From: Fibrobacter sp. UBA7003
GTDB lineage: Bacteria; Fibrobacterota; Fibrobacteria; Fibrobacterales; Fibrobacteraceae
Direction: 5' to 3' (one strand)
Assembly (NCBI RefSeq): GCF_002449765.1
Contig: NZ_DJXN01000008.1
Length of the DNA: 64,000 nt
Part shown: positions 10,628-57,426 of the stretch, in pieces
Layout: each line of letters begins with the position of its first letter
How positions within the stretch are numbered: the stretch's first letter is position 1
The notes under the pieces: generated by a model
Told to the model about the DNA's origin: nothing
What the model saw: only the letters and a program-made list of their open reading frames with translations
Databases searched by the model: none
Translations under genes and position numbers: made by a program

Positions 10628-10682
10628 TGTGTTCCAGGAATACAGCCGTGTTCCGAGAATACACTTTTGTGTTCTAGAATAC
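10628..10682. promoter_or_regulatory. three tandem inverted-repeat boxes (GTGTTC-n2/3-GAATAC) upstream of a TIGR02147 gene
   Basis: TGTGTTCCAGGAATACA at 10628-10644, CGTGTTCCGAGAATACA at 10647-10663 and TGTGTTCTAGAATAC at 10668-10682. Start-to-start spacings are 19 and 21 bp. The array lies 105-160 nt before ATG 10788. Confidence 0.4.
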
Positions 10683-10787
10683 TGAAATTTTATAAGAATT
10701 CTCCAAAAGTGTAAAATTTGAAGTAAAAACGGCATTTTTGTGCTCTATTCCGTTGCACAGCCCCGGAAAAAGGCTATATTTGTAGTG

Positions 10788-11657
10788 ATGAATGCGATTG
10801 TAGAATACACTGATTATCGCAAGTTCATTCGTGACTACTACGAGGAACGTAAGCGGAGTTCGGCATTTACCTGGCGAGATTTTGCCCGGGATGTCGGTTT
10901 TTCGTCGGCGGTGTACCTGAAGTATGTCAGCGAGGGGAAAAAGAACCTGAGCGTGTCGGCTGCGGGTTCGGTCGCGCGCGCCATGGGGCTTGTCGGTTTC
11001 GAGGCCGAATATTTTGTGCTCATGGTCTCGTATGCGCACGCGAAAAACGACAAGGCGAAGCGTGCGGCGTTCGAACAGCGGTGCGCGCTCGCGATGGCGC
11101 ACAAGGTGCGCGTTCTGGGCAACGAGGAATTCGACTATTTCAAGTCGTGGAAAAACCCGGTGATCCGTGAACTCGCATCGCACATGCCCGGCGCGAAGCC
11201 GCTCGATATCGCACGTGCCTGCAAGCAGAAGATTTCTGCGGCGGAGGTTGCGGAGACGCTCGATTTTTTGGTGAAGGCGAAACTCCTGAAGAAGGACGGG
11301 AGCGGTAACTACCAGCAGACAGACAAGGCCATTTCCATGGGGAAGGTGGACGCGGTTCCGGTGGCGGCTCGCGAGATGCAAAGGCAAATGGGGGAGTTTG
11401 CGGTTAGTGCATTGGATTTGCCGCTATCGGAACGCGACATGTCGGGGCTTACCATGGGGATAACGAGCCGTGCCTACGAGCGCATAAAGAACGAGCTTGC
11501 GGAATGTCGCAAGCGCATCATGGCCATTGTCGTGGAAGACGACGAGACGGAGCGGGTGTATCGCCTGAACATGCAGCTGTTCCCGGTGAGCGAAAACATC
11601 AAGGACAAGGACTATTTGAAAAGGGGCTGGACGGATGATGAAAATAAAACTGTTTAA
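10788..11657 (+). CDS. TIGR02147-type Fibrobacter paralogous family protein, predicted DNA-binding
   Basis: MNAIVEYTDYRKFIRDYY ... FTWRDFARDVGFSSAVYLKYVSEGKKNLS has a Cro/C1-like HTH pattern. A second wHTH-like segment is ISAAEVAETLDFLVKAKLLKK. It is a paralogue of 46022..46879. Start chosen by alignment with that paralogue. Confidence 0.7.
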   Translation: MNAIVEYTDYRKFIRDYYEERKRSSAFTWRDFARDVGFSSAVYLKYVSEGKKNLSVSAAGSVARAMGLVGFEAEYFVLMVSYAHAKNDKAKRAAFEQRCALAMAHKVRVLGNEEFDYFKSWKNPVIRELASHMPGAKPLDIARACKQKISAAEVAETLDFLVKAKLLKKDGSGNYQQTDKAISMGKVDAVPVAAREMQRQMGEFAVSALDLPLSERDMSGLTMGITSRAYERIKNELAECRKRIMAIVVEDDETERVYRLNMQLFPVSENIKDKDYLKRGWTDDENKTV

Positions 11658-13074
11658 GTGTGTCGGTGGCGTTTTGCCGGTCTTGTTGCTGCCTCTGGCC
11701 ATTTTGTCGTTTGTAGTTGTGGGTTGTGGCGACAGCGAGGTCGCGGGCGGCGTTACAGAAGATGCGGGCATTGTCGCCGACGTATCGGGCGTGTTCCAGA
11801 AGGGCCCGTTTGTCGAGGGGACTCCCGTGAAGGTGAAGGGCGTTGACTGCGAGACTCTCGAACCGACGGGCGAGATTGCCGAGGGCTCGATCGCGAACAG
11901 CAGGGGCGAATTCAATTTCGCGAAACTTACTTTGTCTACATCGTGCGCCATATTCGAGGCGACGGGCTATTACCTGAACGAACTGACGGGCGAGCGGACT
12001 GCGGACAAGTTTACTCTTCGCGCGGTGACAAGGCTTACGGACCGCAACAGCGTGAACGTGAACCTGTTCACCCACATGGAATATGGACGCGTGGTGCGCC
12101 TGGTGACCGCGAAGGGCATGGACTTTGACGACGCGAAGGAACAGGCCGAGGCCGAAGTTCTGGCGGCGTTCGGAATTGCGGGCGAACTTGAAGAGTTCGA
12201 GGACATGAACATCGCAGAACCGGGAGATGGCAATGCAGCCCTGCTTGCCGTGAGCGTGATGATGCAGGCCGATGGCGGTGTCGCGGAACTGGCAGAACGC
12301 CTCGACAAGTTCGACGACGCATTTGTCGCGGCCGGCTCGTGGGACGATGCCGAAACGAAGAAGGCTATGGCAGGCTGGGCGCGCGCGGCCGAGGCAAACG
12401 GCGGGTTCGACGCTATCCGCAGGAATGTCGAAAGCTGGAGCGAGGGCGGCGTGGCGCCGACGTTCGAAAGCGTCGTGGACGAGATTGTCGAGGAAGTTTC
12501 CAGGAACCCCTACCTGAACCCCGAAGTGGAATACGGGACGCTCGTGGATGCCCGCGACGGCCATGCCTATGCGACGATAAAAATCGGTGGCCAGACGTGG
12601 ATGGCCGAGAACCTGAACTACTTCGATACCGTGGCGGTGCCCGGACTCAAGGACAGCAGCTGGTGCTACGACAACAATCCCGCGAAATGCGCGGAGGCGG
12701 GGCGCCTCTATACCTGGAGTGTCGCAAGGGCGGCCGTTTGCCCCGATGGTTGGCATTTGCCCGATACGACGGAATGGAACGCCCTGATGGCGGCGGCTGG
12801 GGGGAGCGCGGCTGCATCTGCGCTCAAGTCGGCAGCAGGCTGGGATAGCGGCGCGGGCACGAACGGGACCGGGTTCTCGGCGGTCGCTGTCGGCGAACGC
12901 TACCGCAGCGGTTCGTTCGATTCCGAAGGGCTGAAGGCGTACCTGTGGAGCGCCGAAAATGATTCGGAAGACCGTGAGTCCGCTTATGGAATCCTTGTCG
13001 GGAGTGACGATTCGGTCACTTTGAAGGCATTCCCCTTGGCAAACGGGTTTGCGGTCCGTTGCGTAATGGATTAG
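11635..13074 (+). CDS. lipoprotein with a C-terminal Fibrobacter succinogenes major paralogous domain (TIGR02145-like)
   Basis: Lipobox VVGC. Contains GQTWMAENLNY, WCYDNNPAKC..GRLYTW, CPDGWHLPDTTEWNAL, GFSAV and YLWSA. Overlaps the upstream gene by 23 nt. Confidence 0.75.
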   Translation: MMKIKLFKCVGGVLPVLLLPLAILSFVVVGCGDSEVAGGVTEDAGIVADVSGVFQKGPFVEGTPVKVKGVDCETLEPTGEIAEGSIANSRGEFNFAKLTLSTSCAIFEATGYYLNELTGERTADKFTLRAVTRLTDRNSVNVNLFTHMEYGRVVRLVTAKGMDFDDAKEQAEAEVLAAFGIAGELEEFEDMNIAEPGDGNAALLAVSVMMQADGGVAELAERLDKFDDAFVAAGSWDDAETKKAMAGWARAAEANGGFDAIRRNVESWSEGGVAPTFESVVDEIVEEVSRNPYLNPEVEYGTLVDARDGHAYATIKIGGQTWMAENLNYFDTVAVPGLKDSSWCYDNNPAKCAEAGRLYTWSVARAAVCPDGWHLPDTTEWNALMAAAGGSAAASALKSAAGWDSGAGTNGTGFSAVAVGERYRSGSFDSEGLKAYLWSAENDSEDRESAYGILVGSDDSVTLKAFPLANGFAVRCVMD

Positions 13075-13087
13075 GAGAGTATATATT

Positions 13088-16000
13088 ATGTTCATGATGT
13101 CGGTGAGGAACGCAATGAAAATCAGGCTTGCTTTTGTAGCCGCATTGTCGCTGCTTGCGGTTTGTTCGTTCGCGGCGAACGGTACCATGAAGGGCGAAGG
13201 TACCATCGAAAGCCCATTCCTGGTCGATGACTACGAAGACCTGAAGATGATAGGCAAGGGTGCCTACCTGTATTCTTCAGCCTATATGCTGACTGCCGAT
13301 ATCGACGCTTCGGCCTCGTATGGCGAATGGTGCAGTGAAGGCGTGTGCAACGGGTTCATTCCCTTGGGACTTGAGAAGGATGCTGCGGACGCTTCCGTTT
13401 TCACGGGCTATTTTTGGGGGCGTGGATTTACGATCAGGAATATGCGCATATGGACGCCCTGTGCGCACAACGTGGGTTTTTTCGCGAACCTGGGTCAGGG
13501 TGGACTGGTCTCACATTTGAACTTTGATTCCCTTGTGGTGTGGGGCGGCCTGGATGATATCTATGCGCCCCATTCGAAATATGTCGGCGCCGTTGCGGGC
13601 ACGGCTACCGGGTATATCCTCGATGTGCACGTTACAAATGGCGAAGTGCAGGGCCGTGAGTATGTGGGCGGTATCGTGGGCGACATGGAAAAGACGACGG
13701 CCAATTTGGATAATGTCTCGTATGAGGGCGTTGTCCGGGGCGGATCCAGTGTAGGGGGGCTGGCCGGAAGATCCCGTGGTACGATTGCCGAAAGCAAGGC
13801 GGATGTCAAGATATATGCGAAGGGAAGCGATATTGGTGGCCTTGTTGGCGAAAATAAAGGAGATATTGAAAAAAGCGAAGCGGCTGGTTTAATCCTCCCC
13901 ATTGCCGGAAGTTCAATCACCGAAGTCGGCGGGCTTGTGGGGTATAACATAAGCGGTGGCTACATCACTTCATCCAGGGCATCTGTGGATATTCTGCCTT
14001 TGACTACTGCGGTTCCCAAAAGCAAATTGGGCGGTCTGATCGGAGCCAACTATGGTTCTATTGAGCAGTCGTATGCTACGGGCAGCGTCACTGGGAGCGA
14101 GTTCGATATTGGCGGCCTGGTCGGTAAGAACTATGATGGGACTATCCGTAATTGCTTTGCTACGGGAGCGGTGAGGGGGAATAGGTATGTAGGCGGACTC
14201 GTTGGCGATGCATCGGGAGCGGTAAGCACGTCGTACTCGGTCGGGCCTGTTGAAATTTTTGATACGACGGAAGTCGAGGAGGTAGGCGGCCTGATCGGTT
14301 CGGGCGAGGCGGACAGCTCCTACTGGAACGTGGAATTTTCCGGATTGGATACAAGCAGCGGCGGGACGGGACTTTCCGATGTCGCCATGAAAAAGTTCGA
14401 AAGCTTTTTCGGATGGGACACCGAAATCTGGACTATCGACGAGGGGGAATCGTACCCCTACCTGGCTGTGTTCGGCAAGAAGCCCGATGCTGTCGTCTAT
14501 GCGATTCCCACGACGGCAGCGAAGTGGCAGGAAAATCCGGTTGTCGCCGCGAAAGACGATACCGGCCGTGAATTGTTCGGCAAATGGACTGGCGCGAACT
14601 ACCTGAATGCGGCGCGCGATTCCATCTACTACGGCTACAAGATTGGCTACGTCAAGGAATCCGATACCGTCTGGAGTACGTCGAGCTACATGGCGGTCCC
14701 GAACCGTATCGAGATTGCGACTCTCGAAGACCTGCAGAAGATTGGCAGGCATGTCGGCTTCCCGCTGTTTGCAAATTACGAGCTGACGGCCGATATCGAT
14801 GCGTCCGGGGTTGATTTCGAACCTATCGGTGACGAGCGTGTCTTGTTTACGGGTAGCTTCGACGGAAAGAACCATACCATCAGTGGATTCAGGATTGATG
14901 GCCGCAAGAAGGATTATTCCGGACTCTTCGGGAAGGCGGAAAAGGCTGTCTTCAGGAACATTGTTTTCAGGAACGCAAATGTCAATGGTAAGAAAATAGT
15001 TGGCGTGCTTGCGGGCCAGATTGACGGGTCGATTGTGAGCAACGTTGTCTCGTATGACGCAACGGTCAATGGCCATAGCAATGTCGGTGGGCTTATCGGT
15101 ATCGCGTTCTCAAACGACATGGAGCGCCTTGCAAGTACGGGCGCCGTCACGGGAGATACCTGTGTCGGAGGTCTTTTCGGGGCGTTCGCGTCGAAGTTGA
15201 CAGATGCCTATTCCGTGAATGTCGTCAAGGGGCATTATTGGGTTGGGGGCGTTATGGGCGGTGCGAATTTGGATTTCCATAATGCCGATACCGTCCTCAA
15301 TGTTTACTCCGCGAGCCTTGTGAAGGGCCCCCGCAAGCGTATCGAGGGAATTGCCGGATCCGTGGAGAATTCCTACTACGACGAGAAGTATGCGGACATA
15401 TACTTCGACAGCACGCTTATGCCTTCCGAATGGCAGGTCGATCGGTACGAGTTGGGTGAAGCGCTCCCGACTGATTCCCTGCTGAAGCGGGCCACGTTCA
15501 AGGGGTTCGACTTTGAGTCCGTGTGGACTATCCAGGAAGGCGTGTCGTATCCTTATTTCAAGGGAATGGACCCCTCGCTTCCGGGAACATTGGTCGATGA
15601 CGGAACGAGCTATGCCCTGGTGGGCGAAGGTACGGCGGAAAAACCGTTCCAGATTACCAGCTACGATGACCTCAAGAATGTCGGCAAGCATGAATTCGGC
15701 CTGGACGCCCATTACGAATTGCAGGGATTTTATGCAAGCGAATCCGCGACGGACAACTGCGTCGACGGCGTGTGTGCCGGTTTTGAACCCATCGGCGGAA
15801 CCGAAGGTTTCAGCGGGACGTTCATCGGACACAGGGACGGCATTTTCAAGCTGACCATCAACCGCCCCGACGAGGATTACGTCGGCTTGTTCACGAAACT
15901 CAATCCCGGTGCCAAGGTTTCGGGAATAGGGTTGGGCGAGAGCACCATTATCGGCAGGAACTATGTGGGTGGTATTGCCGGGCTGGACAAGGGTGCCGAC

Positions 16001-18160
16001 CTTGAGAGCATGGGTACGGAACGCGACCTGGTCGTTCGCGGCAACAACTATGTCGGTATGGTTGTCGGGGCGAAGGAAGGTGGTACCGCGAAGTACGACC
16101 ATGTCAACGGTACGGTTGAAGGCAACGATTATGTCGGATCCTTTGCCGGAAGCTCCAAGAACGCTTCCTATACAGACAACCTTTCCTGGGCGAGTGTTCA
16201 GGGCAATGCCAATGTCGGCGGCTTTGTCGGTATCGATTCCGCTTCGGCGTACACGAACATCTACAGCATAAGCCAAGTGCGCGGAAACGAAAATGTCGGG
16301 AACCTGGCGGGATCAAGCGAGAAGTCGACCTACAAGTCGGTCTACTACGATGGCGAAGTGTGGCAGTTCGACAACAGCAGTGTCGGAAAGTCGCTCACGA
16401 CGGCCGAAATGCTGGATTCGGCTTCTTACGAGGGCTGGGAATTCGGGACGGTGTGGCTGAAACATGCCGCAGATGCCTATCCCATCCTCGCATGGACAGA
16501 CGGTGTCAAGTTGATTTACCCTGTCAGGACACACGATGTGAAATTCCAGATGGAAGGTTCCGGCACCGAGGAAGACCCGTTCCTCGTCAAGACATACGAC
16601 GACCTCAAGGCGATAGGCTATGGGAAATACAAGCTCTCGGCGGTTTACCGTCTTGCAAACGATATCGATGCGTCGGCCTCCTCGGATGAATTATATTATG
16701 TGGATTCTGCCAGCCATCCGCAGCTGAATTTCACCATCGGTTTCCCGTCTATCGGGAAGTATCGCGAAAATTCCAAGGGCCTGTTCGGGGGTTCCTACGA
16801 ACACGGGACGGATACGACCTTTACGGGCAAATTCCACGGGAACGGCCACGTGATACATGACCTGTATATCTGTACGCTCCAAGCGTACCGCAATTCGGGA
16901 TTCTTCCTTGCTATCGATTCTTCGGCAATCGTGGATAGCCTTGAAATAAGGTTTGTGGAGTTCTCCGGCGTTACAGCAGGCCTTGCCTATGTGAACAAGG
17001 GAATTGTAGACAACGTAAATGTCAAGTGCGACAATCTGGAGGCCGATGTGGGGCTTGTCTACCGGAACGAGGGTACCATCCGGCAGAGTTCCTTCGAGGG
17101 GTTCTTTGGCGGTTACGGGCGTTTCGGCCCTCGCGGGGGTGGCCTGGTCTATATCAACGAGGGAACCATATCGGAATGCTACGTTAATGCGGATGTCGAA
17201 CGGGATATGCCGTATGTCATAGCTGGCTTTGCCGTGGAGAACCACGGGACAATCGAAAATTCGTTCTCGATGGGTGATGTGCTCGGAATGAACGATTCCG
17301 CCTATTCGGCTGTTTATCTGAATACGGGTGTCATCAGCAAGTCTTATTCTGTCGGAAAGGGCTATCGCGCCTTTGCATACGAGAACAAGGGTTCCATCGA
17401 AAATTCGTATGCTCTCAAGACGAGGTATTTTGTGGAACAGTCCGACAACGGGAAGCCTGTCGATGGTACGAATTACCATACGCCCCAGGGAACTACCATG
17501 GGCTCCATGTACATGCAGGATGAGTACCGCGGTTTCGATTTTGATTCCGTGTGGTACATCAAGGAAGGCTTCTCGACACCGATGCTGCGCGGTTTGCCGA
17601 ACATGCCATTCCCTGCGAGTGTGAATCTGAAGCTTGAAGGGAACGGGTCCCTCGAAAATAGGATCCGCGCCAAGATACTCGAAGATGCCATCGTGATGGA
17701 TTCGACGATGACGAAGGTGGTCCATCTGGATGTTACGAGTATCTTCCTGATTGATTCTCTGGAAAAGGCGGAGAACCCTTCCGGGATGTTTGAGATTTTG
17801 TACAGCGTGGGCATGGTACTCGGCAAGGATACGATTTGGAGCGACGAAGCCGTAGCTAGACTCGGTGTCCTGAAGTCGGTTGGCTTGAGCAAGGTTGCCA
17901 CCCCGTCGGGAGCCCGCTTCGGTGCCGCCTTCCGAGGCTCGAATGTGGCGCTCCGTTTCGAAATTCCTGCCGCGGGTGCCGTGAAGTTTATGCTCATGGA
18001 CATGCAGGGCCGTGTCGTCCGCACGTTCAACCTGGGCAACCGTGCCGCGGGTGCGTATAGCGAAACGCTCGATGCCGGTGCGATTGCCCGAGGCCGCTAC
18101 ATCGGCGTGTTGCAGGTGAACGGCAAGGTGATGGAAAAAGTTTTGATGGCTAGAGACTAG
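13088..18160 (+). CDS. giant secreted GLUG-motif repeat protein with a T9SS-type C-terminal sorting domain
   Basis: 1690 aa with a signal peptide. About four modules each open with G.GTE.PF.I..YDDLK.IG ... DIDAS, followed by many VGG(L/I)(V/A)G repeats. C-terminus: VKFMLMDMQGRVVRTF ... GRYIGVLQVNGKV. Alternative start at 13115. Confidence 0.8.
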   Translation: MFMMSVRNAMKIRLAFVAALSLLAVCSFAANGTMKGEGTIESPFLVDDYEDLKMIGKGAYLYSSAYMLTADIDASASYGEWCSEGVCNGFIPLGLEKDAADASVFTGYFWGRGFTIRNMRIWTPCAHNVGFFANLGQGGLVSHLNFDSLVVWGGLDDIYAPHSKYVGAVAGTATGYILDVHVTNGEVQGREYVGGIVGDMEKTTANLDNVSYEGVVRGGSSVGGLAGRSRGTIAESKADVKIYAKGSDIGGLVGENKGDIEKSEAAGLILPIAGSSITEVGGLVGYNISGGYITSSRASVDILPLTTAVPKSKLGGLIGANYGSIEQSYATGSVTGSEFDIGGLVGKNYDGTIRNCFATGAVRGNRYVGGLVGDASGAVSTSYSVGPVEIFDTTEVEEVGGLIGSGEADSSYWNVEFSGLDTSSGGTGLSDVAMKKFESFFGWDTEIWTIDEGESYPYLAVFGKKPDAVVYAIPTTAAKWQENPVVAAKDDTGRELFGKWTGANYLNAARDSIYYGYKIGYVKESDTVWSTSSYMAVPNRIEIATLEDLQKIGRHVGFPLFANYELTADIDASGVDFEPIGDERVLFTGSFDGKNHTISGFRIDGRKKDYSGLFGKAEKAVFRNIVFRNANVNGKKIVGVLAGQIDGSIVSNVVSYDATVNGHSNVGGLIGIAFSNDMERLASTGAVTGDTCVGGLFGAFASKLTDAYSVNVVKGHYWVGGVMGGANLDFHNADTVLNVYSASLVKGPRKRIEGIAGSVENSYYDEKYADIYFDSTLMPSEWQVDRYELGEALPTDSLLKRATFKGFDFESVWTIQEGVSYPYFKGMDPSLPGTLVDDGTSYALVGEGTAEKPFQITSYDDLKNVGKHEFGLDAHYELQGFYASESATDNCVDGVCAGFEPIGGTEGFSGTFIGHRDGIFKLTINRPDEDYVGLFTKLNPGAKVSGIGLGESTIIGRNYVGGIAGLDKGADLESMGTERDLVVRGNNYVGMVVGAKEGGTAKYDHVNGTVEGNDYVGSFAGSSKNASYTDNLSWASVQGNANVGGFVGIDSASAYTNIYSISQVRGNENVGNLAGSSEKSTYKSVYYDGEVWQFDNSSVGKSLTTAEMLDSASYEGWEFGTVWLKHAADAYPILAWTDGVKLIYPVRTHDVKFQMEGSGTEEDPFLVKTYDDLKAIGYGKYKLSAVYRLANDIDASASSDELYYVDSASHPQLNFTIGFPSIGKYRENSKGLFGGSYEHGTDTTFTGKFHGNGHVIHDLYICTLQAYRNSGFFLAIDSSAIVDSLEIRFVEFSGVTAGLAYVNKGIVDNVNVKCDNLEADVGLVYRNEGTIRQSSFEGFFGGYGRFGPRGGGLVYINEGTISECYVNADVERDMPYVIAGFAVENHGTIENSFSMGDVLGMNDSAYSAVYLNTGVISKSYSVGKGYRAFAYENKGSIENSYALKTRYFVEQSDNGKPVDGTNYHTPQGTTMGSMYMQDEYRGFDFDSVWYIKEGFSTPMLRGLPNMPFPASVNLKLEGNGSLENRIRAKILEDAIVMDSTMTKVVHLDVTSIFLIDSLEKAENPSGMFEILYSVGMVLGKDTIWSDEAVARLGVLKSVGLSKVATPSGARFGAAFRGSNVALRFEIPAAGAVKFMLMDMQGRVVRTFNLGNRAAGAYSETLDAGAIARGRYIGVLQVNGKVMEKVLMARD

Positions 18161-18171
18161 GAGAGAGAAAG

Positions 18172-21100
18172 ATGATGAAGTTACGTTTTGTTTTCGCTGC
18201 CGTTCTGTCGCTGCTTGCGATCCATTCGTTCGCGGCGAACGGCACCATGAAGGGTGATGGTTCCGCCGAAAAGCCTTTCCAGATTGAGGATTACGAAGAC
18301 CTGAAGGCGATAGGCAAGGGCACTTACCTCTATTCTTCGAACTACGTGCTGACTGCCGATATCGACGCTTCGGCCTCGGCGCACGAGATGTGCAGTGACG
18401 AGGGCGGCTGCAACGGCTTTATCCCTATCGGCAAGAACAAGGATGCAGCCGACAGCGTGGCGTTTTGGGGAACTATCGACGGCCAGAACCACACGATTCT
18501 CAATTTAACAATCTGGCTACCCTGTGAACAGAATGTGGGCTTTATCTACGCACTTGTCGGTTCTGTCAAGAACTTGAATTTTGACCATCTCCATGTGACG
18601 GGGAGGGTGAGCGAAACCGACCATGTGGGTGGCGTTGTCGCAAGGCTTGTCGGTACGATTGAAAATGTGCATGTGACGAACGGTTTTGTTCAAGGGAAGA
18701 AGCGTGTCGGCGGCATTGTGGGTGCTGCGATGAGGGCTATCGGGTATTCCGGTATGATTCCCGCCTTGAAGGATGTTTCGTTCCAAGGAGAAATCAAGGG
18801 TACGGAACGGGTTGGCGGAATTGTGGGTGAAACAGACGAGGCGACAATCGATAGCGCCGTTGCCGATGTGAATATCATTGCTATGGACGGGCGTGTCGGC
18901 GGTATTGTCGGGTTCAATGACGGGCGTATTACTAACAGCCGTTCCAATGGAACGATTGTCCCGGGAGAATCCGATGTGAATAATGTCGGTGGCATCGCCG
19001 GAGAATCCGAAGGTGATGTTCAAATGTGCGTGTCTACAATGGACTTGGTACGTTACGGCTATGAATTTGATGAAGATATTGGCGGCATTGTTGGCGATAA
19101 CGATAAGGGAACGGTATCCCATTCGTATGCCATCGGAAAGGTAGAAGGAGAACGCTATGTGGGTGGTGTTGTCGGGAGCGGTGGCTTTGTACAGAGTTCG
19201 TTCGCCATGGGCGAGGTGCGCGGAAACAACAAGGTCGGTGGCGTTGCAGGCTCCGGTGCTTCCATTTTCAATTCCTATGCGGCAAACAAGGTCTTGGGCG
19301 ATTCGCTTGTAGGCGGGCTTATTGGATATTCGCCCGATACAATTTTTAGCTCCTACTGGAATACCGAAATTTCGGGACTCGATACGAGTGCAGGCGGCAC
19401 GGGGCTTTCTACCGCGAAGATGATGAAGCTCTCGTCGTTTGCGGGCTGGGACACTCTGGGTTATGATGAGTATGTCGTTGATGGTACGGATACATGCGAA
19501 TACTTTATATATGAAGGCGCTTGCTATTCGCCTACGGGGAACTTTATTCGTTATTGGGACATAGACGAAGGCAAGACTTTCCCGTACCTGGCGAACAACC
19601 CCTATTCGAAAAAGTCGTTTATCCCGATTGCGACTCCGACTGTGGCGGCAAAGTGGCAAGAGCAGCCGCCTGTTGCCTCGCTTACCGAGGTCGATGGCGA
19701 ACTTGTCGGCAAGTGGCTCGGCTGGGTGAATCTGGGCGATAAATATGATACCGTTAGTGGCGATTATACAAGTTTTATATTAAGGAGAGATACGCTCTAT
19801 TATGGCTATAGAATCGGCGTGGTAAACGAAGGCGATACCGTCTGGGGAACGTCGAGCTACGTGGCTGTACCCAACGGGATAAAGATTTCGACACTTGCGG
19901 AACTCCAGAAAATCGGAAACGACATGGCCTACCCGCTGGTGGCAAGTTACGAACTGACTGCCGATATCGATGCTGCCGGGGTCAATTTTAGGCCCATCGG
20001 CGATAGCGTGCATGTGTTCGCGGGAGTCTTCGACGGAAAAAACCATACCATCAAGAACCTGACGATTGTCGACCCGTATCGTGACTTTGCGGGAATGTTC
20101 GGGGTGGCGGATGACGCTGACATCAAGAACCTGAAACTTGAAAACGCGAAAGTCGAAGGGGATTGGTATGTCGGTGCGCTGGCGGGTGAAATCGATAACT
20201 CCCGTGTCACTAACGTTGTCTCCTTGAACGGGAACGTGTCGGGGATGTCGTTTGTCGGCGGATTGATGGGTGCTACCCGCATAAGTGAAATCCATGTGGT
20301 CGGGACTACCGGCTATGTAACGTCGGGCGATATTGTCGGTGGAATTTTTGGCGCTTCCGCTTCGAGGGTTGTAGACGCGTTCTCGGTGAATGTCGTCAAG
20401 GGTTACGAGAACGTGGGTGGCGTTATGGGCATTTCGGATGAGTTTTCATCGGGCACCTTGCAACAGAACATCTATTCTGCGAGTATCCTGAAGGCTCCCG
20501 ACCCGGAAGGAATTATCGGAGGAAACTTCTTCGGGTCGGGCGAACACATCAAATCATGTTATTTCGACAGTACTGTTACAGGAAACGTGTACGGAGGGAA
20601 TACCACCGAAGAAATGTTGAAACAGTCAACATACGAAGGTTTCAACTTCGATACCGTGTGGGCTATCCAGGAAGGCGTTTCTTACCCGTACTTCAAGGGC
20701 ATGGACCCGATATTGCCGGGCACGCTCGAAGACGACGGTACGGTAAATATGCTCGCTGGTACCGGTACCGAAAGGAACCCCTACAAGATTTACGATTACG
20801 ATGACCTCAAGTATATCGGCAAGTACGAATACGGGCTTGACAAGTATTACAAGCTGATGAGCAATATCAATGCCGCGAGTTCGTTCAGGGAGAACTGCAA
20901 TGCCGACAGCACTCTTTGCAAGGGCTTCGAACCGATTGGAGAATTCAGCGGCGTGTTTGACGGGAATAACAAGTTTATTGCGGGCTTGAACATCAACCGC
21001 CCCGACGAGGATTCCGTAGGGCTTTTCCGGGCTCTGGCGGCGGGTGCCAAGGTGAGCGGCGTCGTCTTTGATACGGCTTCGTATCTTGGAAAAGATAATT

Positions 21101-23976
21101 CGTATGGGCCTGCGGATACTAGGGGTGCCATCCATGGCAAGAACTATGTCGGTACCCTCGCCGGTGTCGATAAAGGTGCTACGCTCGAAAAAATCTTTGT
21201 AAAGTATGATGTTTCTGGCGAAAATTACGTAGGCTCCGTTGTCGGTAAGAAATCTTCGGGATCTCTCGCAAAGAGCGCATCCAGGTTCCTCGTTTCGGGA
21301 AACGAAAATGTGGGCGGCCTCGTAGGGCATTTGGGCGCGGCTAGCGTAGCGGATTGCTATTCGATTGCGAATGTCGTGGGTACAAAGAATGTCGGTGGTC
21401 TGTTTGGCTACTCCGACAATGCAACCGTGAAAAACTCCTTTGCCGCAGGCCGTGTAGTGGGGTCTTCTAAATGGGGAGTTGTTGCAGGGGATGCCGACAA
21501 GTCGACTTATACGTCGGTGTATGGCGATAGCTCTCTTTGGTTTGTTAATGTAACGGCTGGTGGGAAACTCCGCACTACGCGGCAGATGGTTACGAAGGAA
21601 AATTACAAGGATTGGGATTTCGTTTCAACTTGGAGCATTGCTGCAGATACAACCTATCCCTATTTGTCTTGGTTTACTTCGGCTTACCGTATATCCAAAA
21701 CAATGAAGGAAAAAGTCTATCCGAATTTGGATGTTGACCAGACGATGCTCAAAATGGCTGGCTCCGGTACTGAGAGCGATCCGTTCCTGATCAAGACATA
21801 CGGTGACTTGAAATCAATCGGGTACGGAAAGTACAAGCTTTCGTCCGTCTATCGTGTGGCTAATGATATCGATGCTTCTGCCTCAAAGACCCAAACCCTT
21901 TTCAGCGGGCGAGGCATTGGATTCAACCCTATTGGCAAGATTGAAATACTCGAAGATTTTTGCAATTGCTATGGTGTTGTTTTGGGCGGATATATACCGC
22001 AGGATACCTCGAGATTGTTTACTGGAAAAATTCACGGCGGCGGTCACAGTATCAGCGACCTTTATATGGACTTCTGGGACAGTGAACCCACGGGGCTTGT
22101 GGATACGATTGCAAAAACAGGTGTAATCGATAGCTTGTCCTTCAAGAGGTATGAGATAAGCAGAGAAGAAGGAAATGTAAATAAAGTTGGCGCCTTGGCC
22201 GGCGTGAACATGGGGACTGTAAGCCATGTTGATATGGATGTCTTGTTCAAGAAAACTTTTGGCGGTGCGGGTCTTGTTTACGATAACAAGGGGCTTATAG
22301 AAAATTGTTCAGTCAAGGGAATTTTTGGCGGGTCATCTTTGGCGGGTATTTCCGTGATAAACGATGGCGATGTCCTCAACGTGAATGTTGATGCTGTCTG
22401 GAGCGATAGCTCGGGACTCGTTGGTGGAATTGCTCTTGTCAACAGGGGACTTATCAAGCTTTCGTCTGCCAAGGTGTCGTTGAATAATGGCCGTGGCCCG
22501 ATTGGTGGAATTGCCGCCATGAATACGGGAACCGGGCGTATAGTCGACGCATCTGTAAATATTGATGCGAAACAGATTATCCAAGAACGCGGCGTGTATT
22601 ATTATGTTGACCACAAAATAAAGGATTACGAATACGAGGATTTTTATATTGATGGAATAGGTGGCCTTGTCGCGATTGATAGCGGGACTATAACGAACTC
22701 TGCTGCAACGGGCGTTATTGACGCGAAGGATGGGGCCTATGTCGGTGGCCTGATCGCTAAAGCTTATAGCAAGGAATTGAAAGGGCTGCATGCGTCTGTC
22801 GATGTTGGGGGCATGTATTGTGTCGGTGGCTTTGTGGGCTTGAACCAGGCGACTATTTCTGAAAGCTATGCTGCCGGAAATGTCAAGGGGAGTGGAAATT
22901 ATTCCTATTCTGGAGCATTTGTCGGCAAGAACGAAGGCGTGATTGAGCGTTCGTTTGCGATGGGGAATGCAAGCGCGGCTGCCGGTTTTGTCGGCGAAAA
23001 TGATGGAACTATCAGGCGGTCCTATTCTACGGGAAATGTAGAGGAGGCTGGCGGTTTTGCCAATATCAATCAGGCTGTAATTGAAGATTGCTATTCGACG
23101 GGCGATGTGTCGGCGAATGAAACGCCATATGGCTTTGGATTTGCCAGTGTCAACGGTAGCGCTACGAAGGTGAGGGGGTATGCTTCCGGAACGGCCGTTA
23201 AGGACGGAAACCGTTTTTGCGTTGACTTGCCCAGAGGGTCGATGCCTTCGGATGAGTTCTACTTCCTTGCCGACGGCTGTATCGATACACTGGCGACGAA
23301 TACCGGACTTTCGCCCTCGGCAATGCGTAAGCAAAAATCCTTCTCCGCGTTCGATTTCGATTCCGTGTGGTACATCAAGGAGGGTGTGAGCTATCCGCTG
23401 CTGCGCGGCATGCCGAACCCGCCGATGCTTGCAGAAGAGAATGCCGTGTACAATAGCAACACCGGGATTGCAAAGAATGTCCGCGCCAAGCTTCTCGAAG
23501 ATGCCTTCGTGATGGATACGGCGGCAACGAAGGTACTCGCGCTGGATTCTGCAAGCGAGGCCCTGCTCGATTCGCTCGAAAATGTCGAGGCGCCGTCTGG
23601 GAAGTTCGAAGTCTCCTACCGCGTGGGCGTTTTGCTCGGTTCCGACACGCTCTGGAGCAAGCCCGCTACGATGCAGCTTGAAATCGAGAAGACGGTCGGG
23701 AACTTCGAAATTGCGGTTGCGTCTGGACTCGGGTTCGGTGCCGCATTCCATGGCCCGCATGTGGCGCTCCGCTTCGAAATTCCTGCCGCGGGCGCCGTGA
23801 AGTTCGCGTTTGTAGACATGCAGGGTCGCGTGGTGCGCTCGTTCAACCTGGGGAGCCGTGCCGCAGGTGCGTATAGCGATGCGCTCGATGCCGGTGCGAT
23901 TGCCCGCGGGCGCTACGTGGGCGTGCTGCAGGTGAACGGCCGCGTCGCCGGAAAGGCGCTTTTGCTAAAAAGGTAG
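18172..23976 (+). CDS. giant secreted GLUG-motif repeat protein, tandem paralogue of 13088..18160, with a T9SS-type C-terminal domain
   Basis: 1934 aa. The N-terminal 70 aa and C-terminal 90 aa are near-identical to the upstream gene, with the same module grammar. SD GGAGAG before the ATG. Confidence 0.8.
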   Translation: MMKLRFVFAAVLSLLAIHSFAANGTMKGDGSAEKPFQIEDYEDLKAIGKGTYLYSSNYVLTADIDASASAHEMCSDEGGCNGFIPIGKNKDAADSVAFWGTIDGQNHTILNLTIWLPCEQNVGFIYALVGSVKNLNFDHLHVTGRVSETDHVGGVVARLVGTIENVHVTNGFVQGKKRVGGIVGAAMRAIGYSGMIPALKDVSFQGEIKGTERVGGIVGETDEATIDSAVADVNIIAMDGRVGGIVGFNDGRITNSRSNGTIVPGESDVNNVGGIAGESEGDVQMCVSTMDLVRYGYEFDEDIGGIVGDNDKGTVSHSYAIGKVEGERYVGGVVGSGGFVQSSFAMGEVRGNNKVGGVAGSGASIFNSYAANKVLGDSLVGGLIGYSPDTIFSSYWNTEISGLDTSAGGTGLSTAKMMKLSSFAGWDTLGYDEYVVDGTDTCEYFIYEGACYSPTGNFIRYWDIDEGKTFPYLANNPYSKKSFIPIATPTVAAKWQEQPPVASLTEVDGELVGKWLGWVNLGDKYDTVSGDYTSFILRRDTLYYGYRIGVVNEGDTVWGTSSYVAVPNGIKISTLAELQKIGNDMAYPLVASYELTADIDAAGVNFRPIGDSVHVFAGVFDGKNHTIKNLTIVDPYRDFAGMFGVADDADIKNLKLENAKVEGDWYVGALAGEIDNSRVTNVVSLNGNVSGMSFVGGLMGATRISEIHVVGTTGYVTSGDIVGGIFGASASRVVDAFSVNVVKGYENVGGVMGISDEFSSGTLQQNIYSASILKAPDPEGIIGGNFFGSGEHIKSCYFDSTVTGNVYGGNTTEEMLKQSTYEGFNFDTVWAIQEGVSYPYFKGMDPILPGTLEDDGTVNMLAGTGTERNPYKIYDYDDLKYIGKYEYGLDKYYKLMSNINAASSFRENCNADSTLCKGFEPIGEFSGVFDGNNKFIAGLNINRPDEDSVGLFRALAAGAKVSGVVFDTASYLGKDNSYGPADTRGAIHGKNYVGTLAGVDKGATLEKIFVKYDVSGENYVGSVVGKKSSGSLAKSASRFLVSGNENVGGLVGHLGAASVADCYSIANVVGTKNVGGLFGYSDNATVKNSFAAGRVVGSSKWGVVAGDADKSTYTSVYGDSSLWFVNVTAGGKLRTTRQMVTKENYKDWDFVSTWSIAADTTYPYLSWFTSAYRISKTMKEKVYPNLDVDQTMLKMAGSGTESDPFLIKTYGDLKSIGYGKYKLSSVYRVANDIDASASKTQTLFSGRGIGFNPIGKIEILEDFCNCYGVVLGGYIPQDTSRLFTGKIHGGGHSISDLYMDFWDSEPTGLVDTIAKTGVIDSLSFKRYEISREEGNVNKVGALAGVNMGTVSHVDMDVLFKKTFGGAGLVYDNKGLIENCSVKGIFGGSSLAGISVINDGDVLNVNVDAVWSDSSGLVGGIALVNRGLIKLSSAKVSLNNGRGPIGGIAAMNTGTGRIVDASVNIDAKQIIQERGVYYYVDHKIKDYEYEDFYIDGIGGLVAIDSGTITNSAATGVIDAKDGAYVGGLIAKAYSKELKGLHASVDVGGMYCVGGFVGLNQATISESYAAGNVKGSGNYSYSGAFVGKNEGVIERSFAMGNASAAAGFVGENDGTIRRSYSTGNVEEAGGFANINQAVIEDCYSTGDVSANETPYGFGFASVNGSATKVRGYASGTAVKDGNRFCVDLPRGSMPSDEFYFLADGCIDTLATNTGLSPSAMRKQKSFSAFDFDSVWYIKEGVSYPLLRGMPNPPMLAEENAVYNSNTGIAKNVRAKLLEDAFVMDTAATKVLALDSASEALLDSLENVEAPSGKFEVSYRVGVLLGSDTLWSKPATMQLEIEKTVGNFEIAVASGLGFGAAFHGPHVALRFEIPAAGAVKFAFVDMQGRVVRSFNLGSRAAGAYSDALDAGAIARGRYVGVLQVNGRVAGKALLLKR

Positions 23977-23979
23977 CCC

Positions 23980-24696
23980 ATGACCCATGCCGAACTCCTA
24001 AAGCGACTGCAGGCCGAACAGGATTTGAAGTACCGCGACTTTCATGCGTCGCTGTTGCCGAACATCGACAAGAAATCGATTATCGGCGTGCGGGTGCCTA
24101 CCATGCGAAAGATTGCGAAGGAGTTCGCGGCGGCCGATGTCGCCAAGTTTTTGGACAAACTGCCGCACAAGTACTTTGAAGAAAACCAGGTTCACCTCTT
24201 CGTGGTCGAACGCATTAAGGATGCGGACGAGTGCCTGTACCGCATCGAACAGTTCCTGCCCTACATCGACAACTGGGCGGTATGCGATGGCAAATCGCCA
24301 AAGGCATTGCTCAAGGACGAAAAGCGGTTCGTGTCGTGCATCGAAAAATGGCTCAAGTCAAAGCACCCTTACACGGTTCGCTTCGGCGTGAACATGCTCA
24401 TGACGTTCTTTTTGGACGTGCGATTCGACAAGAAGTTTTTGAAGTGGGTCGCGGCTATTGATGAATCTCTGTTTAATGACGACGGCCGCGCGGAATGCCC
24501 CACCGACCGCTACTACGTGCAGATGGTCGTCGCCTGGTATTTCGCGACCGCGCTTGCCAAGCAGTGGGATGCGACGTTCCCCTACATCGAGGGCCGAAAG
24601 CTTTCGCCGTGGATTCACGCGAAGTCCATCCAGAAGGCGTGCGAAAGCTACCGCATTACCGATGCGCAGAAGGCTATCTTGCGTCGCCTGAAGTAA
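23980..24696 (+). CDS. DNA alkylation repair protein (AlkD-like HEAT-repeat family)
   Basis: 238 aa. The pattern YRDFHASLLP ... IIGVRVPTMRKIAKEF ... NWAVCDG is typical of the DNA_alkylation family. Confidence 0.7.
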   Translation: MTHAELLKRLQAEQDLKYRDFHASLLPNIDKKSIIGVRVPTMRKIAKEFAAADVAKFLDKLPHKYFEENQVHLFVVERIKDADECLYRIEQFLPYIDNWAVCDGKSPKALLKDEKRFVSCIEKWLKSKHPYTVRFGVNMLMTFFLDVRFDKKFLKWVAAIDESLFNDDGRAECPTDRYYVQMVVAWYFATALAKQWDATFPYIEGRKLSPWIHAKSIQKACESYRITDAQKAILRRLK

Positions 24697-45844: not shown

Positions 45845-45999
45845 GATACTACGTAGTGTACTACCTTTTTATCGTTAATGTACTACAAAATGTACTATAA
45901 AAATTTATAAAATGCAAGAAAAAATTGAATAATTCTCAAATTTTAGCAAAAAAATGGGTAAATAGCATATATCTTTGTTTTTACTATACTATGTACTAC
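45845..45999. promoter_or_regulatory. cluster of TGTACTA(C/T) octamer repeats in the divergent PL11 / TIGR02147 intergenic region
   Basis: Exact TGTACTAC at 45857, 45879 and 45992. TGTACTAT at 45891 and GATACTAC at 45845. Palindrome ACTACGTAGT at 45848-45857. Confidence 0.4.
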
Positions 46000-46021
46000 A
46001 TTTTTATGTATATTTAATATC

Positions 46022-46879
46022 ATGAATACCTTCGTAAACATTTTCGAGTTTACCAAGTTCCGCAAGTTCCTGGCAGAATACCAGGAGCGCCGTCAGGCGG
46101 CGGAGCCTTCGTTTTCGCGTACCGAGTTCTGCAACTTGCTGGGACTCCCGAATACCCGCAGCTATTTCAACGACGTGGTGCAGGGCAAGCGCGTGACCGA
46201 CAACATGCGCGAGCGCTTTATAAACGTTATCGGGCTCAAGGGGAACGAGGCGAGGTATTTCGAGGCGATGGTCGATTTTGACCAGGGGAAGACTGCCCAG
46301 GTGCGCGAAGCGGCGTTCGATGCCATGATGCGCCTGAACAAGAACCCGCAGGCGATTGTGGACCCGGACAGCTACGAGTTCTTTGGCAACTGGTACAACA
46401 GCACGGTCTACGCGATTCTCGAGGTGATGGATGTGGGCGACGACGTATCGGAACTTGCGGCGAAGATTTTCCCGCCCGTGTCCGAGAAGCGCCTGAAGGC
46501 AAGCCTTGAACTCATGCAGAAGATGTCGCTCGTGCGCAAGGACGAACGCGGATTCTGGAAGCCGACGAAGGATAGTCTTGCCACGGTGCAGCAGAGCAAG
46601 AGCCAGATGGTACTCCAGTTCCAGAAGCAGTGCCTGGAACTCTCGAAGCAGGCGCTGGAGTCCGAAGGGAGTGAATCCCGCGACATGACTACGTTCACGT
46701 TCGCGGTTTCGAAATCCGCACAGGCGAAGGTCGAGAAGGCTGCCGAAAAATTCAAGGCGCAGGTGCGCCAGATTGTGATGGCCGATAACGAGACGCCGAC
46801 CGTTGTGGAACATGTGAACCTGCACGTGTTCAGCAACATCCGCGAAAACAATAAACCGTCCGGAACGGACGAGGCGTAG
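46022..46879 (+). CDS. TIGR02147-type Fibrobacter paralogous family protein, predicted DNA-binding
   Basis: MNTFVNIFEFTKFRKFLAEYQ ... FSRTEFCNLLGLPNTRSYFNDVVQGKRVT. Paralogue of 10788..11657 over its full length. Confidence 0.7.
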   Translation: MNTFVNIFEFTKFRKFLAEYQERRQAAEPSFSRTEFCNLLGLPNTRSYFNDVVQGKRVTDNMRERFINVIGLKGNEARYFEAMVDFDQGKTAQVREAAFDAMMRLNKNPQAIVDPDSYEFFGNWYNSTVYAILEVMDVGDDVSELAAKIFPPVSEKRLKASLELMQKMSLVRKDERGFWKPTKDSLATVQQSKSQMVLQFQKQCLELSKQALESEGSESRDMTTFTFAVSKSAQAKVEKAAEKFKAQVRQIVMADNETPTVVEHVNLHVFSNIRENNKPSGTDEA

Positions 46880-48242: not shown

Positions 48243-48408
48243 ACGGGCGTTTAAGGCGCCTTTCGTGGCACATCTTGCGAAATGTAGACTTTTTTTAAGC
48301 AAAACGTTGTTAAAATCTCATAATATTATTCTAAAATATTGTAAAACTATTGACTTTTAATTGCCAAAAGTGTAGATTTTTTATATATTCTCTGGAAAGG
48401 AGTGTGGT

Positions 48409-51338: not shown

Positions 51339-51472
51339 ACGAAGAAACTTGTCTCCGTTGTCTATGGACAACCGGAAGTGTGGTGGTGAAGGTACTATTT
51401 GGAGTGCCGGAGATATATTATAGGTGCAGGTTCCCGGTGGTGCGGGGGCCTGTAATTCAAAAAAAGGATTGG

Positions 51473-54399: not shown

Positions 54400-54434
54400 A
54401 CGTCCCGGCGGAAAGCCGGGGCGTTTTTTTTTTT
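54400..54434 (+). terminator. rho-independent terminator
   Basis: ACGTCCCGGC (54400-54409), loop GGAAA, GCCGGGGCGT (54415-54424, one G-U pair), then a T11 run. Confidence 0.7.
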
Positions 54435-57392: not shown

Positions 57393-57426
57393 CCTAGGCT
57401 CAAACGAGCCTAGGCTTTCTTATTTC
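57393..57426. terminator. hairpin between convergent PL1 and KilA-N genes, also the approximate left edge of the low-GC island
   Basis: CCTAGGCTC (57393-57401), loop AAAC, GAGCCTAGG (57406-57414), then CTTTCTTATTT. Overlaps the KilA-N stop. Confidence 0.5.

Follow-up and report, generated by a model that had tools for sequence, protein, structure and literature searches.

A recurrent two-gene cassette of a probable TIGR02147/DUF4423 regulator and a lipoprotein, with putative private operators, in Fibrobacter

The window analysed here, 64,000 nt of contig NZ_DJXN01000008.1 of Fibrobacter sp. UBA7003 (53.7% G+C), carries two loci in which a gene of the TIGR02147 family (DUF4423) is followed by a lipoprotein gene. 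The conserved unit at these loci and their relatives is a two-gene cassette, TIGR02147 plus lipoprotein, which is smaller and more general than the three-part module with large secreted proteins that had earlier been put forward from the sequence of the window (hereafter the original prediction). In the reading that we consider likely, the cassette is autonomous: a self-regulating DNA-binding protein with a private operator is coupled to a lipoprotein.

Exactly two TIGR02147 genes are present in the window, at 10788–11657 (+) in locus 1 and at 46022–46879 (+) in locus 2, encoding proteins of 289 and 285 aa, respectively. They match the TIGR02147 profile with 323.4 and 249.4 bits (cut-off 50) over positions 1–271 and 2–270 of its 272 positions, and PF14394 (DUF4423) with 107 and 76.8 bits (cut-off 30). 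The two paralogues share 25% identity with each other, and the locus 2 protein has an orthologue in F. succinogenes S85, FSU_2524, with 87% identity; the locus 1 protein is a predicted autoregulator. The lipoprotein gene of locus 1 (11635–13074, + strand, 479 aa) overlaps the regulator gene by 23 nt, while that of locus 2 (46893–48242, + strand, 449 aa) follows after a gap of 13 nt that holds a GGGAGG Shine–Dalgarno (SD) sequence.

The recurrence of this pair was assessed in 62 Fibrobacter loci (about 0.96 Mb), obtained by a scan of one genome per species; loci from all scans are denoted below by L and a number. A family-profile search of six-frame open reading frames (ORFs) in these loci and the window gave 124 TIGR02147 genes. 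When the downstream ORFs were read, a lipoprotein of the same family was found next after about 115 of the 120 assessable genes. This tally was made by reading the sequences, as over-strict regular expressions for the lipobox and motif had returned 65 of 120 and then 80. At 102 regulator/lipoprotein junctions, 60 overlaps were counted and 34 further pairs lay within 25 nt, the mode being −4 nt (n = 23). The TIGR02147 genes often occur two to four per 20 kb in co-directional tandem arrays with a spacing of 3–5 kb, for example at 2785, 5631 and 10001 in L022 and at 1251, 5812 and 10001 in L017. Neighbouring cassettes stand back to back in about 27 of 59 pairs, the next TIGR02147 start lying within about 310 nt of the lipoprotein stop, and therefore the unit can consist of two genes alone; wider gaps are mostly filled by a second lipoprotein paralogue. 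Orthologues are syntenic across Fibrobacter species. This survey of TIGR02147 homologues upheld the regulator and lipoprotein parts of the recurrent module as first described, but not the large secreted cargo as a rule, since giant proteins with GLUG repeats follow the lipoprotein in 6 of 100 cassettes.

The pairing also reaches distant environmental relatives of the TIGR02147 family. A metagenome scan with three divergent members yielded 37 loci (22–36% identity to the query, GC 37–65%); the Bdellovibrio protein used as the only query gave no loci. Among 25 divergent loci that could be assessed, about 22 have the regulator gene overlapping or adjoining a lipoprotein gene whose product carries, after the lipidated Cys, a motif related to that of the cassette lipoproteins (GG[ST][ED][VI]GNP, GGGGIETV, AGGSTDTELG or AGTST), and in several of them the sequence that follows looks, by eye, like a carboxypeptidase-regulatory-like sandwich. 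In the subfamily of locus 2, the regulator and a LamG lipoprotein overlap by 1–4 nt in L063, L065, L066 and L067; in L068 the coupled pair is retained, with a partner that lacks LamG and has a weak CarboxypepD_reg match only. On a Bdellovibrio plasmid, the TIGR02147 copy has an overlap of 4 nt with a gene whose secreted product is not a lipoprotein, and the next gene encodes a second secreted protein with a faint FGE-sulfatase/C-lectin signal.

Both window lipoproteins have a lipobox ([LVI][ASTG][GAS]C) after the signal peptide, VVGC at Cys31 in locus 1 and FAGC at Cys28 in locus 2, and are predicted to be lipidated. The C-terminus of lipoprotein 1 is a FISUMP domain (TIGR02145; 173.9 bits, cut-off 41.65, E 5e-51), in place of which lipoprotein 2 carries Laminin_G_3 (30.7 bits, cut-off 27.6). 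The AlphaFold2 (AF2) model of lipoprotein 1, with a mean predicted local distance difference test (pLDDT) score of 79, consists of a beta-sandwich at residues 46–133, a helical bundle at 144–289 and the lectin-like FISUMP domain at 301–479. A Foldseek search of the PDB with this model gave no significant neighbour and weak matches to beta-sandwiches (PA1324, Ole e 1-like). Cassette lipoproteins range from 184 to 1099 aa and have a common layout, in which the signal peptide and lipobox are followed by a Ser/Asp-rich stretch, the motif AG[GT]xS[EG][DE]xG[IV]xA, a module that opens with [IV]AGVxQKGPFVxGSxV, and a variable C-terminus. Among 72 of them, Fib_succ_major (FISUMP) was detected in 49, the related Lcl_C in 15 and LamG in one, and no Pfam model matched the shared N-terminal region of about 290 aa. 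FISUMP and Lcl_C have a C-type-lectin-like fold, which is present at 12535–13074 in the window and in cassette lipoproteins of L001–L062.

The Gly-rich acidic motif lies 3–15 residues past the Cys and is kept in very distant cassettes (window and L070–L106). As a tether after the lipidated residue it reads VAGGVTEDAGI in lipoprotein 1 (11725–11760, lipoprotein residues 31–47) and DSAGILIETNTGN in lipoprotein 2 (46974–47020). Its variants (AGGxSEDAGI, DSAGILIETNTGN, GGGGIETV, GGTEVGNP and AGGSTDTELG) follow the regulator subfamily. Other lipoproteins encoded in the same Fibrobacter loci lack the motif, and thus within this sample it does not mark lipoproteins in general. The acidic residues that follow the Cys are similar to the lipoprotein export signal of Bacteroidetes, and the cassette lipoproteins are probably exposed on the cell surface.

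Arrays also contain a third kind of member, namely lipoproteins of about 520–550 aa that keep the QKGPF beta-sandwich and do not have the AGGxSEDAGI motif (CSQNDSSSALSEGSRTIYGTSQKGPF...). These are positioned after short cassette lipoproteins of about 287 aa (L004 3139–4695, L005 2708–4273, L009 3357–4913, L022 943–2601, L023 4979–6613 and L057 1966–3543).

The FISUMP domain occurs in 54 copies in strain S85 and was considered a possible cohesin analogue or cellulose-binding protein (PMC4704652), and one FISUMP member was seen solely in cellulose-grown cells (PMC4619616). Diversity-generating retroelements of Bacteroides and its phages use a domain of this type as their variable target (PMC4159848, PMC5758913).

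The AF2 model of the locus 1 regulator (pLDDT 76) has an N-terminal helical domain with the helix-turn-helix (HTH) helices at 29–36 and 41–48 (pLDDT about 88–90), a winged helix at 122–177 (helices 122–163, hairpin 167–177) and long C-terminal helices at 191–250. All of its helices are of the soluble kind, with no transmembrane segment. On this model, TIGR02147 looks like a soluble DNA-binding protein of the cytoplasm in which an XRE-type HTH is combined with a winged helix, which supports the earlier description of an HTH and a second winged-helix-like segment without a membrane helix. The Foldseek matches in the PDB were confined to single domains: the XRE proteins Stl, HigA, C.BclI and NHTF, with probabilities of 0.95–0.99 but E-values of 0.07–0.4, and winged helices of MarR/Fur type. 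No whole-chain neighbour was found there by Foldseek (best E 0.03), and a sequence search of the PDB with the family profile gave nothing below E 0.4. The Bdellovibrio homologue matched HTH_3 with E 1e-4 and 22.5 bits (cut-off 23), and the Pfam scan of the window regulators gave no tetratricopeptide repeat (TPR) domain. The family comprises 14,953 representatives of 50% clusters at E ≤ 0.001 among 1.84 billion cluster representatives; one Chitinivibrionales entry was seen among its distant representatives, and the phyletic range is thus only sketched.

Upstream of the locus 1 regulator gene, three tandem imperfect palindromes of the form GTGTTC-N2-3-GAATAC begin at 10629, 10648 and 10669 with a spacing of 19–21 bp. 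They are the only three in the window, all within 10629–10682 (+), against 0.01 expected, and are taken as the distal operators. The spacer element GTGTAAAATTTG at 10709–10720 (+) is the window copy of a conserved 12-nt sequence, TGGTAAAATTTG, and the promoter scan returned TTTATA-17-TAAAAT at 10689–10717. A proximal half-site, TTTTTGTGCTCTATT, is located at 10735–10749 (+) at the −35 region and forms a repeat with 10662–10676. The −10-like box TATATT at 10775–10780 (+) is separated from the ATG at 10788 by exactly 7 nt, and no SD sequence is present.

The same arrangement was found at locus 2 with other sites. The putative distal operators at 45845–45898 (+) are GATACTACGTAGTGTACTAC, with ACTACGTAGT as a palindrome inside it, together with GTACTAC (45880) and GTACTAT (45892), and they lie 40–90 nt from the start codon of a divergent PL11 gene. 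The proximal operator, TACTATACTATGTACTAC at 45982–45999 (+), is in the −35/spacer region and appears as TACTAC-N4-TGTACTA[CT] in S85-like orthologues; the −10-like box TATATT at 46009–46014 (+) again stands 7 nt before the ATG (46022), without an SD sequence. GTACTAC occurs three times in the 64-kb window, on one strand, and all three copies fall within the 142 bp (45858–45999) upstream of the second gene. A further GTACTA at 51392 was judged a chance occurrence because the extended TGTACTAC context is absent there. The upstream repeat arrays are therefore non-random, and the original prediction was confirmed in describing two loci that each hold a TIGR02147 gene, a lipoprotein gene translationally coupled to it or nearly so (the overlap of locus 1 and the short gap of locus 2), and such repeats.

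The alignment of 82 non-redundant upstream regions of locus-1-like classes revealed a common order of elements. The terminator hairpin and T-run of the upstream gene are followed by a palindrome of 14–15 bp (the 15-bp GTATTCCnGGAATAC or a variant of it) and, some 5 bp further on, by a direct half-site, TTTTaTGTTCTAAA. Next come an AT-rich spacer with TGGTAAAATTTG, a second direct half-site TTTTGTGTTCTAAA that coincides with the −35 position, 19 nt, cTATATTTG, 5 nt and the ATG, so that the promoter end of the regions reads TATATTTG-N5-ATG. In 79 of the 82 regions exactly 7 nt separate TATATT from the ATG, and none of the 82 has an SD sequence, whereas other genes of the window have SDs of the GGAGG type. 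From this spacing and the lack of an SD, the regulator is predicted to be made from a leaderless mRNA. The same geometry was seen in locus 2 and its relatives, and in the very distant L077, L081 and L083. Promoters of the Bacteroidetes type carry TAnnTTTG at −7 and TTTG at −33; the leaderless inference is independent of promoter type, since a Bacteroidetes-type reading of TATATTTG also puts the start at or next to the ATG. Some 65 nt before the ATG, the 82 regions of all operator classes have TGGTAAAATTTG, with a conservation of at least 90%. The element resembles an extended −10 (TGnTAAAAT), and its locus 2 copy is TGGGTAAATAG at 45955–45965; it may act as a second promoter or as the target of a shared factor.

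Of 70 class palindromes, 61 are located in the zones upstream of TIGR02147 genes, which make up about 5% of the sequence. Four of the exceptions belong to orphan control regions, which lack a regulator gene and lead into a lipoprotein gene (L004 13160–13400 (13218), L009 ~13224, L032 ~12694 and L042 ~12703). These regions retain the terminator, the palindrome, the half-sites, TGGTAAAATTT and TATATTTG and continue into a leader of 45–60 nt with an SD sequence, which implies that a paralogue of their class acts on them in trans. Metagenomic members have palindromes of their own, GTATTCTtcAGAATAC, TGTGTACaaaaGTACACA and GATTACAnnTGTAATC-like ones; in L089, L094, L095 and L096, GATTACAnnTGTAATC-like palindromes are combined with a lone GATTACA beside a TATATT/TAAATT box, about 60–150 nt before the start codon. 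By position and distribution, the upstream repeats behave as candidate operators of TIGR02147.

To compare the proteins with their sites, the regulators were grouped by the residues at the start of HTH helix 2 (28, 30, 31) and of the recognition helix (39–43, 46), and the sites per 225-nt upstream region were counted against the bulk rate. Regions of T28/R30 proteins contain 3.9 copies of GT[AG]TTC (bulk 0.33) and no ATGTTC, whereas those of S28/H30 or S28/Q30 proteins contain 2.3–3.7 copies of ATGTTC (bulk 0.22) and 0.0–0.6 of GTATTC. S28/R30 proteins go with GTATCC (2.5–3, bulk 0.11), the ASGSY..L class with GTTTTA (2.6, bulk 0.08) and the second protein of the window with GTACTA (4, bulk 0.03). 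The corresponding predicted sites are GTATTCCnGGAATAC for T28/R30, CATGTTCnnGAACATG for S28/H30 and TGTACTAC for the locus-2 type. Within the subfamily of locus 2, LPNTRSYF is found with GTACTA[CT] in the window, L063, L065 and L067, and LPKTRSYF with four copies of TGTTCTATA in L066. The classes are mixed within arrays, L017 having ATGTTC, GTGTTC and GTATTC in order. Because three to four half-sites per region changed together, the pattern points to co-evolution of a DNA-binding protein with its sites, and such concerted change argues against pure drift. From this covariation and the predicted fold we infer that TIGR02147 proteins bind DNA, and the comparison argues that they would act as autoregulators with private operators.

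In the mechanism that we propose, the regulator would bind its own palindrome just after the terminator of the upstream gene, together with one or two direct half-sites. One of these overlaps the −35 of the cassette promoter, through which the regulator would control its own transcription; with a weak −35 covered by a half-site, class II activation and occlusion are equally compatible. The long C-terminal helices would probably serve dimerisation. Leaderless translation of the regulator would run straight into the overlapping or abutting lipoprotein gene, with both products encoded by a putative dicistronic mRNA. In Fibrobacter the cassette would have been amplified into tandem arrays while recognition-helix residues and half-sites diversified together, which would leave each cassette or small regulon insulated from its neighbours. 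Extra genes may ride on the operon, such as the GLUG giants at locus 1 and second lipoprotein paralogues in other cassettes, and the operator region of locus 2 may serve the divergent PL11 gene as well.

Several points weigh against the autonomous cassette. Co-inheritance of duplicated cassettes contributes to the covariation and is not fully separable from it here. A GTG stands at the predicted leaderless start in L067 and L068, and the −10-like box of L094 is about 40 nt upstream of the ATG, hence the leaderless geometry does not apply to every subfamily. If TGGTAAAATTTG/TGGTAAAAT were a real promoter, the mRNA could have a leader of about 60 nt and would not be leaderless. Pfam HTH models did not match either window regulator at E ≤ 0.01, and the Foldseek matches of the regulator are weak, none having an E-value better than the 0.03 given above. 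Moreover, the loci behind the 124 genes were retrieved by similarity to the regulator, and for this reason the census is not a whole-genome count.

The genes downstream of the pair differ between the two loci. In locus 1, the lipoprotein gene is followed by two genes for giant secreted GLUG-repeat proteins, which are paralogues with 43% identity: GLUG1 at 13088–18160 (+; 1690 aa, Sec signal), after a gap of 13 nt with an SD sequence, and GLUG2 at 18172–23976 (+; 1934 aa), after a gap of 11 nt. No convincing terminator was found between the lipoprotein gene and the giants, and GLUG1 is probably part of the locus 1 operon because of the short gap, the SD sequence and the lack of a terminator. 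The six other cassettes with GLUG giants are those of L016, L028, L041, L043, L015 and L026. The first four form the orthologous group of locus 1, with regulators that start with MKAI[IV]EYTDYRK and lipoproteins of about 480 aa that are 54–55% identical to that of the window. An operon that adds a GLUG giant to the regulator and the lipoprotein is thus real and conserved in this group, without being a property of the family.

Locus 2 is flanked on one side by the divergent gene for a PL11 rhamnogalacturonan lyase (43641–45806, −), with which it has the operator-bearing intergenic region in common, and on the other by genes for a GH43 arabinanase (48409–51318, +), a second PL11 (~51473–54382, +; terminator 54400–54424) and a PL1-like enzyme (~54538–57360, +; terminator 57393–57414), all three outside the conserved cassette. 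Between the lipoprotein gene and GH43, one or two sigma70-like promoters are located at 48350–48389 (+; TTGACT-17-TAGATT and TTGCCA-17-TATATT), and the GH43 gene also has an SD sequence. As promoter-like sequence precedes GH43, the enzymes of locus 2 are probably a separate transcription unit; no operator sites of the GTACTAC type were found before the GH43, PL11 or PL1 genes downstream of the window pair. In other members of the subfamily, the pair is followed by three GH43 genes (L065), lipid genes on the opposite strand (L066), a convergent histidine kinase gene (L067) or ferredoxin genes (L068). The divergent gene that shares the operator region is PL11 in the window, RGL11 in L066 and GH53 in L067. 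The locus-2 type probably also controls this divergent pectinolytic gene, judging from the distal sites close to the PL11 start and the repetition of the layout in L066 and L067. In four of five distinct contexts (including the window, L065, L066 and L067), this type adjoins pectin- or arabinan-degrading genes.

The two PL11 paralogues, the GH43 arabinanase and the PL1-like lyase around locus 2 together make up a pectin side-chain cluster. In contrast, the organism is reported not to grow on the breakdown products of hemicellulose (PMC3079729).

The C-termini of these secreted proteins had been described as sorting-domain-like, and the isolated C-terminal 110 aa were compared with TIGR04183/PF18962 (cut-off 23 bits), the profiles of the C-terminal domain (CTD) of the type IX secretion system (T9SS). 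The description is borne out in part: with 24.1 bits for TIGR04183, PL1 has the sole score above the cut-off; PL11 (20.9 bits) and GLUG1 (17.3 bits) remain below it, GLUG2 gave no TIGR04183 match (a weak FlgD-like one only) and GH43 gave nothing. The basic terminal domain of Fibrobacter proteins has been proposed to be a T9SS CTD (PMC6851124).

The original prediction had seen in the two loci a counterpart of the regulator/sensor pairs of polysaccharide utilisation loci (PULs), with the lipoprotein as a polysaccharide sensor and the pair as a switch for downstream T9SS cargo. Known PUL regulators (SusR, hybrid two-component systems, ECF sigma/anti-sigma pairs) are likewise linked with surface lipoproteins, and the cassette lipoproteins bear lectin-like domains. 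Locus 1 has no terminator and gaps of merely 11–13 nt up to the GLUG giants, and the order of regulator, lipoprotein and GLUG giant recurs in the six cassettes named above, four of them orthologous to locus 1. The C-termini of PL1, PL11 and GLUG1 resemble the T9SS CTD, and the locus-2 type has polysaccharide-enzyme neighbours (window, L065, L066 and L067) and an operator common to the divergent PL11 or GH53 gene. There is thus a partial truth in the PUL idea, in that this type stands beside pectin/arabinan genes and the promoter region of the divergent gene contains its distal operator. However, most cassettes have no cargo, as the back-to-back pairs and the rarity of GLUG giants show, the genes downstream are unrelated or on the opposite strand in L066–L068, and GH43 has promoter-like sequence of its own. 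Control of large T9SS cargo by the cassette is therefore not supported as a rule for the family. Unlike PUL regulators, the cassette has neither a transmembrane or periplasmic sensor nor SusC/SusD: the regulator lacks a membrane segment, no partner transducer is encoded, and SusC/D-type Pfam matches were absent from the gene tables of L065–L068 and from the window genes examined, the conserved unit being regulator and lipoprotein only. No path from lipoprotein to regulator is apparent in the cassette, and nothing supports signalling in that direction. We regard the PUL-like reading as unlikely, and the analogy with a PUL regulator/sensor pair did not stand.

It is also quite unlikely that the repeats are bound by another factor, or are mere promoter architecture, with TIGR02147 acting as a chaperone or targeting factor for the lipoprotein precursor, or as a nucleoid protein. 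The strict translational coupling and the family-wide motif near the lipoprotein N-terminus would suit such a protein–protein relationship, and the constancy of TGGTAAAATTTG across operator classes does call for at least one common factor or promoter element. Yet the half-sites change with the residues at the starts of helix 2 and of the recognition helix, orphan operators are kept without a neighbouring regulator gene, and the modelled fold of the regulator would comprise two DNA-binding domains. It appears very improbable that the cassette is a selfish or mobile module, be it a phage-derived repressor whose partner lipoprotein serves superinfection exclusion, a defence system or a toxin–antitoxin-like pair. 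Tandem amplification and the single plasmid homologue, on the Bdellovibrio plasmid near IS66, could be read in this way, and temperate phages are known to have leaderless repressor mRNAs with accessory genes after them, as well as repressor/lipoprotein pairs, as in lambda cI-rexAB and in Streptococcus thermophilus phage TP-J34, where the lipoprotein gene ltp stands beside the repressor gene. The search of 50,697 phage records by tblastn with the TIGR02147 regulator gave no homologue, however, and neither regulator nor lipoprotein had a family match in PHROG or PADLOC; a phage or defence origin was rejected on these grounds. The flanks are also devoid of integrase and phage genes, and the synteny of orthologues across Fibrobacter species speaks against mobility. 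In a further reading, which we find unlikely, the cassette would be a self-contained signalling circuit in which the post-Cys motif (AGGxSEDxGI, GGGIET, GGTEVGNP) feeds back on the regulator through the unexported precursor or a released N-terminal fragment, with arrays producing insulated and possibly exclusive surface lectins. The logic would be like that of FlgM/sigma28 or of lipoprotein-derived pheromones. If it were true, export or processing of a surface protein would set the expression of its own cassette, and Fibrobacterota and their relatives would have a means of surface variation without DNA rearrangement.

As an autonomous cassette, the pair can be compared with several known systems. 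Cro/CI (XRE) autorepressors, such as lambda CI at PRM, the 434 repressor and restriction–modification controller (C) proteins like C.BclI, are similar to the cassette regulator in its modelled XRE-type HTH and domain-level Foldseek matches, in its putative palindromic operators with extra sites round its own promoter, and in having the regulator as the first gene. The lambda cI mRNA from PRM is leaderless, with the same −10-to-ATG geometry as predicted here. The cassette regulator differs in its additional winged helix and long helical C-terminus (DUF4423), without a whole-chain match in the PDB. Unlike the Cro/CI-type systems, the cassette is not associated with phages or restriction–modification, has an invariable exported lipoprotein partner, and occurs in dozens of paralogues per genome, each with a putative private operator. 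In the capsule loci of Bacteroides fragilis, UpxY/UpxZ are locus-specific paralogous regulators, with the regulator as the first gene of each surface operon. UpxY is thus alike in that one paralogue heads each of many parallel surface loci, in the locus specificity that is also predicted for the cassette regulators and in its host from the FCB group. However, UpxY proteins are NusG-like antiterminators that act on the 5′ untranslated region of the RNA or the elongation complex, whereas the cassette has a predicted HTH protein with putative palindromic DNA operators, and no UpxZ-like cross-inhibitor was seen in the cassettes. In RRNPP systems the HTH is followed by TPRs and the partner is a small secreted peptide, as opposed to a winged helix with long helices and a lipoprotein of 184–1099 aa. 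The cassette is set apart from the Cro/CI-type and Bacteroides capsule systems by a modelled two-domain DNA-binding architecture without a solved relative, an invariable lipoprotein, and massive amplification with putative private operators.

The searchable full-text literature on TIGR02147/DUF4423 held one proteome table entry only, Bdellovibrio Bd3700; TIGRFAMs and InterPro notes, which possibly mention the adjacency, lie outside the literature covered. The statement that no function is assigned to this family holds within that literature, in which nothing was found that links FISUMP to TIGR02147 genes, to the N-terminal module of about 290 aa or to the post-Cys motif. The genome paper of F. 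succinogenes remarked that the surroundings of cellulase genes show a 'paucity of transcriptional regulators' (PMC3079729), and the control of the surface and fibre-degrading apparatus of this species is an acknowledged gap. TIGR02147, the 'second' paralogous family of the organism and a DUF, becomes a candidate family of transcription factors for which operators and specificity residues are predicted, and which is physically linked with the largest paralogous family, the FISUMP lipoproteins with their 54 copies in S85. This would provide a first testable handle on the control of abundant Fibrobacter surface proteins. The regulator/operator pairs, if naturally orthogonal, could also serve as genetic parts for a phylum without tools.

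Two further features of locus 1 were recorded. An antisense ORF at 11599–13206 (−; 535 aa) spans the whole lipoprotein 1 gene and was judged spurious because the plus-strand frame holds the FISUMP domain; codon and G+C bias probably gave rise to it, and the strand of lipoprotein 1 could be miscalled by automatic gene callers. A DNA alkylation repair gene at 23980–24696 (+; PF08713, E 1e-13) begins 4 nt after the GLUG2 stop codon, and it would be an odd companion of GLUG2 if the two are co-transcribed.

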